From Octopus vulgaris (Eukaryota), in contig OX597814.1 of NCBI GenBank assembly GCA_951406725.2, positions 151,156,001 to 151,220,000 of the forward strand: a stretch of DNA of 64,000 nt, read 5' to 3'. The position numbers were made by a program, and so were the translations under genes. Below, in pieces: positions 11,499-48,410 of the stretch. Under the pieces are notes generated by a model, which did not search any database, was not told the origin of the DNA, and saw only the letters and a list, made by a program, of their open reading frames with translations. Numbering within the stretch: the first letter of the stretch is position 1; every line of letters starts with the position of its first letter.

Positions 11499-11562
11499 TT
11501 TGTAAAAAATGAAGTTCGAAAATGCTGCTATATTATACAAATTTTTAATTTTCATATATACA

Positions 11563-11604
11563 TTATAACATGTTTCGGTTCTTGAAATGAACCTTATCAA
11601 AAAA
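11563..11604 (-). ncRNA. Minimal type I hammerhead motif, U3-A8 variant (family E)
   Basis: Minus strand: TTGATAA-ggttc-atttcaa-gaacc-GAAAC-at-GTT. Stem III is the palindrome acatgt; stem I weak. Confidence 0.55.
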
Positions 11605-11964
11605 AGTTATATATAAAAAAAGATAGTTCATGCTATCAAATATAAAAAATTCATTTATAATACACGATAGAGTCAGACATCAAAAAGTTCATATATAGTG
11701 TGAAGTGAGTTCGTTCATGCTATATGTTTAAAGTGTCTGATGCAGTGGTTCATAGTGGTGATATGCATTCAATATAAAAAATAGATCAAAGTGGTGATAT
11801 GCAGTCAATATAAAAAATTGATGTTCCTGAAAGAGCGAGGAATTCATTTTAGATTTTACCTTTGAGCAACTGTGATGACTTATGGTCGGTGTTCGCTGGA
11901 TGATTCTGGCATACCTTGTGAATTGTTCGGGTTTATAACACCTGTTAGGTGGTCAGTCCAGCGT

Positions 11965-12905
11965 AACGTGACGTCATCAACGTTTTGACCAATCGTTTCG
12001 TTAGGTGGCTTAGTCAAGCAGAACGTGACGTCATCAACGTTTTGACCAATCGTTTCGTTAGGTGGCTTAGTCAAGTAGAACGGGACGTCATCAATATTCT
12101 GACCAATCGCGACCTATAGCTGTATTAGAACTGCCTCTTGTGTGTATCCTGTTTTGACCAATCGTTTCGTTAGGTGGCTTAGTCAAGCAGAACGTGACGT
12201 CATCAATGTTTTGACCAATCGTTTCGTTAGGTGGCTTAGTCAAGTAGAACGGGACGTCATCAACATTCTGACCAATCGCGACCTATAGCTGTATTAGAAC
12301 TGCCTCTTGTGTGTATCCTGTTTTGACCAATCGTTTCGTTAGGTGGCTTAGTCAAGCAGAACGTGACGTCATCAACGTTTTGACCAATCGTTTCGTTAGG
12401 TGGCTTAGTCAAGTAGAACGGGACGTCATCAACATTCTGACCAATCGCGACCTATAGCTGTATTAGAACTGCCTCTTGTGTGTATCCTGTTTTGACCAAT
12501 CGTTTCGTTAGGTGGCTTAGTCAAGCAGAACGTGACGTCATCAACGTTTTGACCAATCGTTTCGTTAGGTGGCTTAGTCAAGTAGAACGGGACGTCATCA
12601 ACATTCTGACCAATCGCGACCTATAGCTGTATTAGAACTGCCTCTTGTGTGTATCCTGTGTTGACCAATCGTTTCTTTAGGTGGCTTAGTCAAGCAGAAC
12701 GGGACGTCATCAAAATTCTGACCAATCACGACCTATAGCTGTATTAGATCTGCCCCTTGTCTGTATCCTGTTGGGTGACTAGTCAAGCAGAAAGGGACGT
12801 CATCAATATTCTGACTAGTCCCGGCCTCTAGTTGTATTAGATCTGCCCCTTGTCTGTATCCTGTCCAGTCTAGCAGAACTAGACGTCATTAACGTGTTGA
12901 CCAAT
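11965..12905. repeat. Tandem array: 57-bp unit and 112-bp variant forming a 169-bp higher-order repeat
   Basis: Unit starts at 11965, 12022, 12079, 12191, 12248, 12360, 12417, 12529, 12586 and 12698. Units contain (T/G)GACGTCA and GACCAATC. Confidence 0.93.
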
Positions 12906-13098
12906 CAGAATCGGGTCTGACCCTTAGCTGTATCGTATGTGGCCAGTCCATCAGGGTTAGATTTGTTCGAAGAGATCTTTTTTATAAATTTTTTTCCTTT
13001 TTTTTCCTAAGGCATATTTCCGTCAGTGTGAGTGACTGTTTAAGGTAGCGGCCGTGGTGGAATTTTGCTTCTCCTTTTCGGAGGACCTATCTTTTGTT

Positions 13099-13630
13099 TT
13101 AATATTCCTGGCCCAGGGTGTTTAAACTTGGTCTAAATTTTTTTATGAAATACAGTTCTTTATTTTGGCGTTGCGTGAAGGTTGCGTTGTCACTGAATTT
13201 ATAGAGCGGATAAGTTGTAAATTTCGGATTTACATTTCCAGCACATCTATCTATGTGTCCGCTGACCGGTATTTTCCGGTAATCAGGGTTTCTAATTTGT
13301 GATTTATGCACCGCCATCCTGTTACGTAAGCTATTTTTTGTATGGCCTATATACTGCCTATTGCAGCCTGCGCATGTTATGACGTAAATTAAGTTTTCTG
13401 ATGCGCAGGTGAAGTTTGCTCTAATGGTGAACTGGTGGCCTTGTTCCAGTATAAATTCTGATCCTTCTATCAAGATGACACAGATTCCGCAGTTGGGCCT
13501 TCCACATTTTCTAACTGCTGGTTTTGTGGTTGATGTTGAGTGCAGTTTAGCTTGGGTTAAAATCCTTTTCAAGGATTTTGGTTGCCGTTTACTTTTAATG
13601 ATGGTGTGTGTTTCGAGGATCCGGTTCATC
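13099..13630 (-). CDS. GIY-YIG endonuclease of a Penelope-like element (C-terminal fragment)
   Basis: RQPKSLKRILT linker, CGRPNCGIC, FTCASENLIYVITCAGCNRQYIGHT...LRNRMAVH, ELYFIKKFRPSLN. Confidence 0.88.
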
Positions 13631-13729
13631 ATATACACATATGAGAGAGAATCCACTTTAGTGGATTCTCTCTTATATGTGTATTAATAATATTTACTGA
13701 ATCTCAGTTTTTTCACCCTCATTTTGATT

Positions 13730-13900
13730 TATATATATATATATATATATATATATATGTGTGTGTGTGTGTGTGTGTGTGTGTGCGTGTGTAGGTATGT
13801 ATGTATATATATATATATATATATATATGTAGATAGATAGATAGATAGATAGATAGATAGATAGATAGATAGATAGATAGATAGATATACATATATATAT
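13730..13900. repeat. (TA)n, (TG)n and (GATA)n microsatellites
   Basis: Direct reading. Confidence 0.95.
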
Positions 13901-14050
13901 TGTTTCATTCTTTTTTTACTTGTTTCGTGCACATCGACCCAGGACTTATTCTTTGCAAGACTAGTACTTATTCTATCGGTCTCTGTTGCCGAACGGAGAC
14001 GCAAACACACCAGCATCGGTTGTCAAGCGATGTTGAGGGACAAACACAAA
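13900..14050 (-). mobile_element. SINE family W, 3' fragment
   Basis: catcgacccaggacttattctttg...cggttgtcaagcgatgttgagggacaaacac, as in 57740-58095. Confidence 0.6.
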
Positions 14051-14099
14051 CACATACACACACATGTATACATACATAATACATATATATATATATATA

Positions 14100-45834: not shown

Positions 45835-46180
45835 TTAAAGAGTAAAGCTCCCCTTCGGTCATAAATGACCATGAGATTGCACCTAGAAAGTTACCCCATC
45901 GAGGCACAAGTAAGGGCAAGGTTGTTTTTAGTGAAGACTAGCAGTCGCCCATGCATACCAGCTTCCCCTCTCCACACCAACGATGTTATCCAAGGGAAAG
46001 GCAAAGGCTGATAAAACTTGGGACCAGTGACGTCACAACTCATTTCTGCAGCTGAGTGAATTTGAACAAAGTGAAATAAAGTGTCTTGTTCAAGAACGCA
46101 ACAATCAACCCGGTCCGAGAATCGAACTCACTACCTCATGACTGTGAACCCGACGCTCTATCTACTGAGGCGTACGCTTT
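45835..46180 (-). mobile_element. SINE family Z
   Basis: Homologous to 10420-10752. Confidence 0.8.
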
Positions 46181-47036
46181 TACGTGTGTGTGTGTGTGTG
46201 TGTGTGTGTGTGTGTGTGTGTGTGTGTGTGTGTGTGTGTGTGTGTGTGTGTGCTTATTAAATTTTTGGGAAACGATATATAAAAACTTGAGCATTATTAA
46301 TTTTTAAAAGTTTGATGCTGACTGTGATTCGGGCATTGATGACGGCTTGTAAACTGAAACTTAAGAGTTTAATAGAGCAGCACCTATGGATATCAAATGC
46401 ATTAATATATCTCACCAGTTATTCTGGTAACGATATTTCGCCTATGTAGCAACACTTTTTCTACGGAGTTTGCGATGGTCTTGAAAACTCATCTATAAAG
46501 TTTTCGGCAGCTTTATAAACACCTGACGTTTTATCAACACGAATCTTTGAATATTTAATGCCATACGATTTCATAAATTTTTATAACCAGCTTCCAATAT
46601 TTTTTTTCTTTTTAGCGTTAATCAATCCATTAAGCTTGATATATTCACTCCAATGCTGACGAACCTCCTCTATCAACAGACGATCATTTATTTTTATTCT
46701 ATGTAATGTTTGTTTTGTTTTGTTTCTGGCTTTGGTATGTGCTTTTGTTGCTCTCTCTCCCTCTTCCTCTCTCTCTCTCTCTCTCTCTCTCAATCTCTCT
46801 CTCTCTACATTTTTTAAACTTCTGTTTTTATTACTTTCAACTAAGAGACTCAACAATTTATCTCTCTGCTTCTTTAAGTTATGTACGGCGATTGTTCGAA
46901 TGTCAAAACTCTTCAATCACATTTACACCGTCGTCGAGGTTCCTCCAACGATTCGACTGCTCGTACTAATGATAAATACAAACGCGTTCTTTCTCTTTCA
47001 TTATCTTTTCGCTATTACTCACGAAAATATCTGCAG

Positions 47037-47068
47037 GCTTTTTCGACACTTTCAACGCAAAATACGAG
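47037..47068 (+). CDS. Candidate exon (G)FFDTFNAKYE of a possible second class B GPCR
   Basis: Donor gag|gtaagt and possible acceptor ctgcag|. Joins in frame to 55896-55966. Confidence 0.3.
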
Positions 47069-47577
47069 GTAAGTAATGCACGCACCAATGAGTTGTTAAA
47101 ACAATTACTGTTAATAAACAGACTCCAACTTAACTGGGCCGTACAATTTTAGTCCACACCGGATAATGTTTTTTCCTAACAATAACAACTCGATGCAAGC
47201 TTAGCAACAGCTGTCAATATCCAGGAAACCCTCCGGGAAATTTCTAGAGTTTTCCATTTGCATTGCTTCTCTTACTCCAACAGTTACAAATTTTTCGGTA
47301 TTTCACATCAAGGATTATCAGATATGTGGCGTGTCTTTGTATGCGTATATAGAGATACATGTTTATATATATATATATATATATATATATATATATATAC
47401 ACATGCATATATATGTGTGTGTATTCATATGTATATATATATATATATATATATATATATGTGTGTGTGTATGTATGTATATGTATATATATATTTGTGT
47501 ATATATATATGTATATACATATATCTGTATATATATATATATATATATATATATATATATATATTTGTATATACAAT

Positions 47578-47815
47578 ACTTTTAAGTAATGATTTGTGAT
47601 GATTAGAATTAATATTTATGTATTTAAGATATTCATTTGGTTTGTGAAATGAAGAGTAGGTTTCATTATCAAGGTCTAAGGTTCCATCTAAAAAATTTGC
47701 CTTAGAATAACTTTTTTCAAATGTAATAGATAACCCGAAATTTTTATAAAATTTATGTAATTCCTCTTTCATTTTCCCTATTTTTCTTTTAAATCTACCG
47801 TTATAGATAAGGAGT
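47578..47815 (-). mobile_element. Penelope-like RT fragment (distal palm/thumb)
   Basis: [57 protein letters not shown] matches the PLE 'NFLD...KP...Y..SNHP' pattern. Confidence 0.78.
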
Positions 47816-47896
47816 CTATAACAATTTTACAATTTTACTTCAAATTTTTTTTTTTAAAAACTATCATTCGATATATTATACAATATTCATATTTTA

Positions 47897-47988
47897 TATC
47901 TCTGAAGAGCAGAAGGGTTGTCTATAAATGCTTATCAATATAGGATTTCATTATAGGGACAACTCTTCTGCGAAACGATAGTAAGATG
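47897..47988 (+). ncRNA. Type I hammerhead with long stem II (family D)
   Basis: atct-CTGAAGA-gcagaagggttgtc...gacaactcttctgc-GAAAC-gata-GTA-agat; canonical G10.1-C11.1. Confidence 0.78.
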
Positions 47989-48265
47989 CTCAAATAATTA
48001 ATTCAAAATTTTTAAACTATCAAATTTATTTTATACATTATATTTATGTTTTTATATTTATTTATTTATATATATTTTTAATATAATAATTTCCTTCACA
48101 CGGGTATATCTTTATGGTGAGTTTGGATATTAATTTCCCTATATCAATAATAATAATATATTATTAAAAAAATATATATGTATATATATATATATATATA
48201 TATATATATATATATATATATATATATATATATATAATAAGAGTAGATCGTATACGAGTGGGTAT

Positions 48266-48410
48266 ATATTTGTAAAAAAGAAGTTTGAAAACGCCACTAT
48301 ATTAGATAAATTTTAATTTTCCTATGAATTTTACATGTTTCGGTTCTTGAAAAAACGAACCTTATCAAAAATATTATAAAAAGTGCAAAGGAAAAGTTCA
48401 TAATCGTTTT
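48266..48410 (-). mobile_element. PLE terminal fragment with U3-A8 hammerhead (family E; HHR at 48328-48372)
   Basis: Homologous to 11499-11604. attt-TTGATAA-ggttc...gaacc-GAAAC-at-GTA-aaat. Confidence 0.65.

Follow-up and report, generated by a model that had tools for sequence, protein, structure and literature searches.

Hammerhead ribozyme motifs in an Octopus vulgaris genomic window: the ends of Penelope-like elements and putative non-LTR retrozymes

Introduction

Minimal hammerhead ribozymes occur in the pseudo-long terminal repeats (pLTRs) of Penelope-like elements (PLEs) and are dispersed in metazoan genomes, those of the molluscs Lottia and Crassostrea included (PMC4209133). Non-LTR retrozymes were defined in work that counts ~5,000 motifs in mussel and as many as 120,000 in axolotl and in which PLEs are put forward as candidate helpers (PMC7229834), and a 2026 preprint derives retrozymes from pLTRs (bioRxiv 10.64898/2026.07.22.740005). 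In both studies, the case for what mobilises animal retrozymes is built on co-occurrence and homology. Here we analyze a 64,000-nucleotide stretch of Octopus vulgaris DNA (C1:151156001-151220000, "the window"; 35% G+C and rich in (TA)n) from an assembly of 2.8 Gb in 227 contigs, in which a sequence-only reading had placed nine hammerhead-type sites within 37 kb. The motifs are very probably of two sorts, at a density typical of the genome: the pLTR cores of PLEs (families C, D, and E) and non-coding retrozymes (families A, A2, and B) that PLE enzymes are likely to have copied in trans into (TA)n. Both groups are new representatives of kinds already known, and in this host they seem not to have been described in detail.

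The window motifs have much in common with the minimal hammerheads of metazoan PLEs: a type-I core with a U3-A8 variant, a short palindromic helix III, a long helix II, U-rich flanks, and a preponderance of solo copies. Pairs on opposite strands, 100-700 bp apart in the published genomes, recur here in C. They differ in that A2 and B carry a 1x1 mismatch instead of G10.1-C11.1, and our estimate of ~1.8 x 10^5 motifs, made with a different descriptor, compares with 2,000-9,000 per genome there (PMC4209133). With animal retrozymes (PMC7229834; bioRxiv 10.64898/2026.07.22.740005), A, A2, and B share non-coding, AT-rich tandems with one type-I hammerhead per unit, a highly self-paired circular fold (here a predicted one), and co-existence with PLEs, and a U.U at the base of stem II, as in B, has also been seen in axolotl. 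Their units of 530-561 bp exceed those of coral, mussel, and axolotl (~230-390 bp) but lie within the 51-972 bp of the 2026 survey. They differ further in that no homologous autonomous pLTR was found for them, in that they are known from DNA and not from circles, and in that a two-end PLE signature was counted. Non-autonomous Chlamys elements such as MRC1 offer another parallel, as they too are non-coding, depend on PLEs, carry pLTRs, and form head-to-tail multimers (PMC8557442); the Chlamys elements, however, belong to a mostly hammerhead-free clade and have 3' ends like those of their helpers, a likeness not seen for A, A2, and B.

Among cephalopods, 235 Rfam Hammerhead_1 loci have been counted in the giant squid (PMC6962438), and octopus Naiads are listed among the PLEs (PMC8557442). 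The 2026 O. vulgaris repeat annotation lists 893 families of unclassified short interspersed nuclear elements (SINEs) and, for Penelope, 30 families with recent activity, and the words "ribozyme," "hammerhead," and "retrozyme" are absent from its main text (PMC13282606); the portion of PMC7761336 consulted does not mention cephalopods. The supposition that such elements were undescribed in cephalopods therefore fails for hammerheads, given the squid count, and stands for retrozymes to the extent that we found no account of them in the literature, a search that had Repbase, Dfam, and supplements outside its range and so does not establish absence from print.

Results

Window Motifs Fall into Six Lineages

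All nine sites were found, offset by a few to ~90 bases from their reported coordinates. Both halves of the core are present in eight of them; the ninth, at 31991, is 5'-truncated within the core and lacks the CU. We used a type-I descriptor that requires CUGAnGA or UUGAnAA, a stem II no shorter than 3 bp (in which a bulge or a 1x1 mismatch is tolerated), GAAA, a paired 15.2-16.2, UH, and a stem I of at least 3 bp. Six of the nine sites pass and nothing else in the window matches, against a mean of 0.3 and a maximum of 2 in 40 dinucleotide shuffles of 500-bp blocks. The sites that fail are 31991 (truncated), 39357 (U.G at 15.2-16.2), and 11600 (a stem I of 1 bp). The base of stem II is one place where the descriptor tolerates a 1x1 mismatch. 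Because it was designed after the sites were known, the blind sample described below is the fairer test. An Rfam scan of the window yielded 183 matches, dominated by matches of (TA)n to miRNA models, and the 150 that were listed include no hammerhead; on the whole genome, Hammerhead_1 gave six matches among the 73 of 263,217 candidates that were scored, a figure unusable as a motif count.

The sites had been grouped into five families, but they represent six lineages, as 15110 (A) and 26030 (A2) are separate and ~65% identical. The conserved core, CUGAnGA (or UUGAnAA)...GAAA...UH, is kept in the majority sequence of every family, and the descriptor passes 50/54 rows in A, 31/53 in A2, 17/28 in B, 9/23 in C, 24/29 in D, and 13/45 in E (overlapping loci are counted more than once). 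At the family level, the G10.1-C11.1 pair that closes helix II is present in D and E and is represented by A-U in A and G.U in C. Stem III is self-complementary in the family majorities (ACAUGU, ACAAUUGU, ACGAUCGU, ACGUUGACGU, ACGUGCGU, and ACAGGCUGU), which bears out the description of these motifs as minimal, dimer-type cores with a short palindromic stem III. Predicted homodimer folds pair the stem III segment in A, C, D, and E, and not in A2 or B. Individual window copies depart from their families: D has CGATAG where the family palindrome is CGATCG, B has CAACTG where the family has CAATTG, and A has A.A at 10.1-11.1 and GUU. A and A2 are 65% identical overall, yet all 13 core positions are conserved between them, and their 13 stem pairs show four compensatory changes, two wobble changes, and one broken pair.

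Several unrelated families (L196, L207, L210, L211, and L222, as well as A2 and B in the window) share a 1x1 mismatch (A.A, U.U, or C.A) at the stem II base.

Families C, D, and E Are the 3' Ends of PLEs

The E pLTR lies downstream of the open reading frame (ORF) in all 14 loci retrieved with the GIY-YIG protein, and locus L157 has the order pLTR-ORFs-pLTR. A frame of 781 aa is open in 24 of the best 150 matches (from 19,082 candidates; counted by hand). By Pfam, it contains RVT_1 followed by a C-terminal GIY-YIG domain, and the CX4CxxC linker and CCHH motifs are present. The pLTR, partial tandems, an optional tail, and a (TA)n target are all found, and copies have two alternative 3' ends, 35-40 nt apart. 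The GIY-YIG fragment at 13099 is E's own endonuclease (EN). The motif at 48328 belongs to a sister subfamily, E2, and recurs downstream of an 88-92% identical EN in L325, L328, L331, L336, and L342.

The order of reverse transcriptase (RT) and C-terminal GIY-YIG, the linker, the CCHH motifs, the (TA)n target, the hammerhead pLTR, and the 35-40-nt tail are all shared with the EN+ PLEs of the Neptune clade (PMC8557442), and by its linker and CCHH motifs E would be classed as Neptune-like, with Nematis as the other possible clade; nearly all of its homologues are unnamed. Unlike the single-ORF Neptune type, full-length E has an additional upstream ORF1 of ~465 aa that overlaps the RT frame (L160:1621-3017 (+); L157 and L159); an optional frameshifted ORF1 is allowed in some PLE types (Fig. 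1 legend, PMC8557442). ORF1 comprises a coiled-coil-like part followed by a Pro/Asn/His-rich part, and Pfam gave no match for it or for the Hydra-like pieces described below. A shared FL...DT(R/G)W stretch ends four of five unnamed homologues. The overlap in L157 contains a U UUU UUA run (deduced from two translations), L160 differs here, and a -1 frameshift at this point is possible. In the 3' untranslated region (UTR), the 57/169-bp repeats vary in number and are followed by a TATA-like stretch upstream of hammerhead E. The repeats hold CCAAT and TGACGTCA, which we take to be promoter motifs, and the region looks like a pLTR promoter. Six PLE proteins labelled as bacterial, from a gill symbiont (P0035, P0041, P0069, P0076, P0094, and P0120), are 44-49% identical to E; the labels probably reflect host contamination.

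A relic of B adjoins the 5' truncation of E at 13630. We considered a template switch and rejected it, as pieces of A, A2, or B are absent from all 32 further E junctions examined; a common preference for (TA)n targets is the favored explanation.

The RT piece at 47578 and D matched different loci in a first search. A search with the upstream part of D returned loci with RT and D on one strand, among them L276, with the order EN-pLTR-RT-EN-pLTR. Because the two co-occur on one strand elsewhere, the RT piece (-) and D (+) in the window are read as one inverted insertion. D shows RWK, DKT, a CxC linker, CxxC near the end of the EN, and, by eye, no CCHH, all in common with Hydra-clade PLEs, as are the hammerhead and the (TA)n target; the EN of C is similar (PMC8557442). 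D and C differ from that clade in linker spacing (CxC is there, with the third cysteine further off than in CxCX5C), in their degraded state, and in a unit longer than the usual <3 kb. Judged by motifs, D and C would be Hydra-clade-like.

C copies are 76-91% identical, which marks an older family. Upstream of C, 1.3 kb of 3' UTR, non-coding and microsatellite-like, leads to a degraded Hydra-like EN. This EN lies on the same strand as C in L230/L285 and L245, and colinear DNA is found in L127, L232, L239, and L248.

C, D, and E are therefore the 3' ends (pLTRs) of protein-coding PLEs and not stand-alone non-coding tandem units, and because each is joined upstream to a PLE ORF, they lie outside the definition of a non-LTR retrozyme. 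The description of non-coding tandem or inverted units holds for A and B, which have a PLE-type insertion structure, and not for C, a Hydra-like PLE 3' end. The possibility that every family would prove to be the pLTR of an autonomous PLE is realized in three of the original five groups (C, D, and E). The two fragments proposed as helper types come from the ORFs of the elements themselves, 13099 from that of E and 47578 from that of D.

A, A2, and B Have the Organization of Non-LTR Retrozymes

The units of A, A2, and B are 560, 561, and 531 nt long, their longest ORFs starting with Met code for 33-49 aa, and no PLE ORF was seen inside any unit. Predicted circular folds are more stable than those of 30 shuffles (z = -4.8 for A, -10.2 for A2, and -4.5 for B), with 64-66% of bases paired. 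Arrays with a 99% internal match reach 3.3 units in A and 5.2 units in A2, and two complete hammerheads are present in 2/24 loci of B (L097 and L111). The searches returned 1,911 (A), 1,868 (A2), and 2,490 (B) candidates, of which the best 40 were scored in each case, so that these figures are not copy numbers. By such DNA criteria, A, A2, and B would qualify as non-LTR retrozymes, the array structure being that of the genomic copies and not of the window's own.

The longest A2 array (5.2 units; L178-L185, C14 ~251315-254216) has an apparent stem I mismatch and GUU, and it fails the descriptor; weaker ribozymes may give longer multimers, as in this one array. Outside the window, L186:2307-4763 is an array of the classical retrozyme type, with a 359-bp unit in 5.6 copies plus an inverted arm, with seven identical canonical hammerheads.

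Insertions of A, A2, and B Carry a PLE Signature

We numbered the ends of A, A2, and B arms from the predicted cut site and counted unique arms. The 3' ends fall at +202 or +289 in A, at ~+198 or +293 in A2, and at +169 or ~+260 in B, and nearly all arms end at one of these two fixed sites (A, 42/48; A2, 35/36; B, 27/29). TA-rich DNA follows 92 of the 104 two-site arm ends. In the window, most ends abut (TA)n, as had been noticed; the exceptions are both B ends, C on its left side, and A at its main end, where the TA run is short or degenerate. All 30 head-to-head double insertions pair one long with one short end (17/17 in A, 10/10 in A2, and 3/3 in B). In work with a purified PLE protein, reverse transcription began at two internal sites, one on each side of the tail, and both strands of the target were extended (PMC11167929). 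The two fixed ends and the long and short arms match this in vitro behavior, which points to PLE enzymes as the makers of the A, A2, and B insertions.

To examine the template, we took A2 loci retrieved solely with the 181 nt that follow the cut (30 loci from 949 candidates; the copy in the window was excluded). Of the arms long enough to reach the predicted cut, 24/25 read through it. A linear cleaved monomer was rejected as the usual template, as only 1/25 arms stops within 10 nt of the cut. Read-through argues for a circle or an uncleaved multimer, and we regard a circular monomer and an uncleaved multimer as about equally likely.

Motif Density Is Typical of the Genome

The blind sample consisted of forty 10-kb regions at round coordinates on C1-C29 (400 kb, or 0.014% of the genome). 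It contains 32 descriptor matches, compared with 2.4 in shuffled sequence (30 shuffles). A self-complementary stem III, which the descriptor does not require, is present in 26/32 of these matches and in 8/73 shuffled ones. Under a stricter rule, 26 matches remain, against 0.07 in shuffles, distributed over 13/40 regions and 15 distinct motif keys, so that the genome does hold the diverse hammerhead population that had been proposed. BLAST found no match between the blind-sample motifs and the six motifs of the window. These counts suggest a genome total of ~1.8 x 10^5 motifs (bootstrap 0.8-3.1 x 10^5), a rough figure to which one array contributes seven matches. By resampling, at least six matches in 64 kb are expected with P = 0.34. 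The 37-kb grouping thus equals background density, and the window is an ordinary sample of this genome rather than a cluster.

Helper Search and RNA

Among 15 pairwise comparisons of tails, only A-A2 and A-B are significant (0/300 shuffles); the A-B score is 62, compared with 38 +/- 5.5 when shuffled, and A2-B is not significant. A tail profile run over 1.44 Mb of loci revealed no helper, nor did the sequence downstream of other EN fragments. The 13099 GIY-YIG and the 47578 RT are at most candidate helpers of A, A2, and B, and the lack of significant similarity between the A, A2, and B tails and those of C, D, and E goes against the original proposal.

Expression of A2 was sought in assembled contigs from four runs, three of them RNA by our guess, in which the ends of molecules are not readable. 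In X12, a 597-nt A2 contig corresponds to one unit plus 30 nt and has a depth of 76.6, compared with 3-13 in the other contigs listed. A closed cycle would presumably give a contig of one unit plus 30 nt if the assembly used 31-mers. This contig is a weak hint of a circle, and a tandem transcript or DNA would look alike.

Other Features of the Window

The positions of the elements and their hammerheads are given in Table 1. The window also contains two LINE-type RT copies (long interspersed nuclear elements; CR1/L2-like by eye) at 1161-3357 and 7173-10050, which are 69% identical, one with a 550-aa open frame, and broken hAT-like transposase frames (by eye) at 50886-53072 (-). A SINE-like family of ~230 bp with 184-bp partial tandems is present at 4254-4490, 4974-5147, 54783-55019, 56812-57246, 58822-59206, and 60028-60260; the descriptor finds no hammerhead in it.

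Table 1. Elements and hammerhead motifs in the window (positions counted from its first base; cores as read from the sequence, 5' to 3' on their own strand)
Feature	Position	Strand	Core	Remarks
E, 5'-truncated young Neptune-like PLE	11500..13630	-		linker, GIY-YIG, 3' UTR, pLTR; no tail, ends on (TA)n
Hammerhead E	11567..11600	-	11600->11567	U3-A8 core, 5-bp stem II, ACAUGU palindrome, GUU; stem I nearly absent in subfamily
E 3' UTR tandem repeats, 57/169-bp	11944..12906	-		CCAAT and TGACGTCA motifs
E linker CX4CxxC and GIY-YIG endonuclease	13099..13629	-		PF01541; 99% identical to residues 606-781 of the 781-aa RT+EN frame
B relic, two arms (one long, one short end)	13633..13730			without hammerhead; adjoins E 5' truncation
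Retrozyme A (putative), one 560-bp non-coding unit	14814..15393	-		ends at long 3' site, +289 from cut
Hammerhead A	15110..15172	-	15166->15116	6-bp stem I; sub-lineage with A.A at 10.1-11.1, GUU
A short arm, inverted	15388..15486	+		ends at short 3' site, +202
Retrozyme A2 (putative), 1.2 units of 561-bp non-coding repeat	25838..26519	-		between (TA)n runs
Hammerhead A2	26030..26091	-	26085->26036	6-bp stem I, A.A at stem II base, ACAGGCUGU, GUC
B internal pieces, inverted, at 5' junction	31815..31991	-
Retrozyme B (putative), 1.4 units of ~530-bp non-coding repeat	31991..32746	+		first hammerhead cut inside core
Hammerhead B	32512..32590	+	32519->32583	7-bp stem I, U.U at stem II base, GUA
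C left arm with tail	38895..39279	-	39229->39140	3' end of old Hydra-like PLE
C right arm without tail	39278..39568	+	39357->39451	stem III change in hammerhead
RT fragment of D's Hydra-like PLE, inverted	47568..47815	-		same-strand RT and pLTR in other loci
D, 5'-truncated pLTR	47821..48170	+		Hydra-like PLE 3' end
Hammerhead D	47897-47988	+	47902->47983	15-bp stem II, GUA
E sister subfamily (E2), short pLTR and tail	48237..48400	-	48368->48332	GUA

Discussion

The observation of the sequence-only reading is confirmed, and its interpretation is partly supported. For A, A2, and B, we envisage that a PLE protein would bind the RNA near its tail and nick one strand of (TA)n or both. Two fixed sites ~90-100 nt apart form the ends of copies, with head-to-head arms ending one at each site, and copying passes the predicted cut, often beyond one unit; the template would then be a circular monomer or an uncleaved multimer. 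The self-complementary stem III, together with published work, suggests that cleavage would take place as dimers, possibly only with the help of protein, and released monomers may circularise. In published experiments, cleavage of minimal motifs was weak and confined to multimers (PMC4209133), and an anole PLE ribozyme required protein for cleavage (PMC11167929).

Several results weigh against this account. Many copies are decayed (17/28 rows of B and 9/23 of C pass the descriptor), stem I of E is only 1-3 bp (13/45 rows pass), and A2 and B have A.A and U.U, respectively, in place of G10.1-C11.1. Self-cleavage and circular RNA of the window motifs are predictions; in a recent study, in vitro cleavage was seen for only one of nine comparable dimers from Xenopus (bioRxiv 10.64898/2026.07.22.740005), and ribozyme cleavage was dispensable for insertion by a purified PLE (PMC11167929). 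The A, A2, and B tails match no C, D, or E tail, an A- or B-like 3' end was found downstream of 0/30 GIY-YIG loci, and none of the 32 other E junctions carries A, A2, or B pieces. For C, the link to an ORF by protein match is seen in only 2/25 independent loci, and the loci examined yielded linker and EN but no RT. The loci are the best-scoring 40 of hundreds to thousands and are biased toward young, long copies.

Could all six lineages be solo-pLTR debris, with ORF-bearing copies of A, A2, and B merely rare? This is what C, D, and E are, and the ORF link of C surfaced only when a second search reached further upstream. The spacer from one hammerhead to the next in A, A2, and B, however, consists of the 530-561-bp unit, repeated in arrays of up to 5.2 units, and a PLE ORF is seen in no unit, so we consider this explanation improbable for these families. 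Their tandem arrays would also be expected of satellites spread by unequal crossing-over, and LINE machinery (RTE, CR1, or R4) might have copied them, since the published annotation of O. vulgaris ranks LINEs first in abundance among active elements (PMC13282606) and the tail and GIY-YIG searches found no helper PLE. Against both routes, copies are dispersed over many chromosomes as short (TA)n insertions with two fixed 3' ends, and their inverted arms are long plus short in 30/30 cases, as in E and C and in published PLEs (PMC8557442, PMC11167929); spread by either route seems very unlikely to us.

The two remaining alternatives concern the motifs rather than their carriers. Nine sites in 37 kb, when 27/40 blind regions lack a strict match, might suggest a special cluster or hotspot of ribozyme elements, but six matches in 64 kb against 32 in 400 kb (P = 0.34) leave this idea with hardly any standing. 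That AT-rich repeat DNA simply produced the motifs by chance might be argued from the absence of hammerheads among the listed Rfam window matches and from a descriptor tuned after the sites were known. The window has six matches against 0.3 in its shuffles, and the A-A2 covariation also speaks against chance; the blind regions, with 26 strict matches against 0.07, refute the argument, and we give it practically no weight. We therefore retain the division into PLE pLTRs and non-coding units likely to be copied by PLE enzymes.

The non-coding units described here bear a mechanistic footprint of PLE insertion, in 30/30 informative cases, together with read-through of the cut site. This footprint and the density of motifs lift the finding above plain debris, and the identity of the elements is unchanged by it. 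The blind sample suggests a hammerhead load far above published counts, even those for genomes of much greater size (axolotl, with at most 120,000), and the presence of young families and intact PLE ORFs in one genome makes the helper question testable. A bolder proposal, which we put forward tentatively and think rather doubtful, is that the octopus-type genome is the most hammerhead-dense animal genome reported (1-3 x 10^5 motifs, or ~1 every 15 kb, belonging to a great many unrelated families). Young families such as A2 would be expressed as abundant 560-nt RNA circles, on which Penelope enzymes would perform rolling reverse transcription from a pair of fixed start sites. If this were true, part of the octopus "unclassified SINE" fraction would be ribozyme circles, and the mobilisation of retrozymes by PLEs in trans would be directly demonstrable in this animal.

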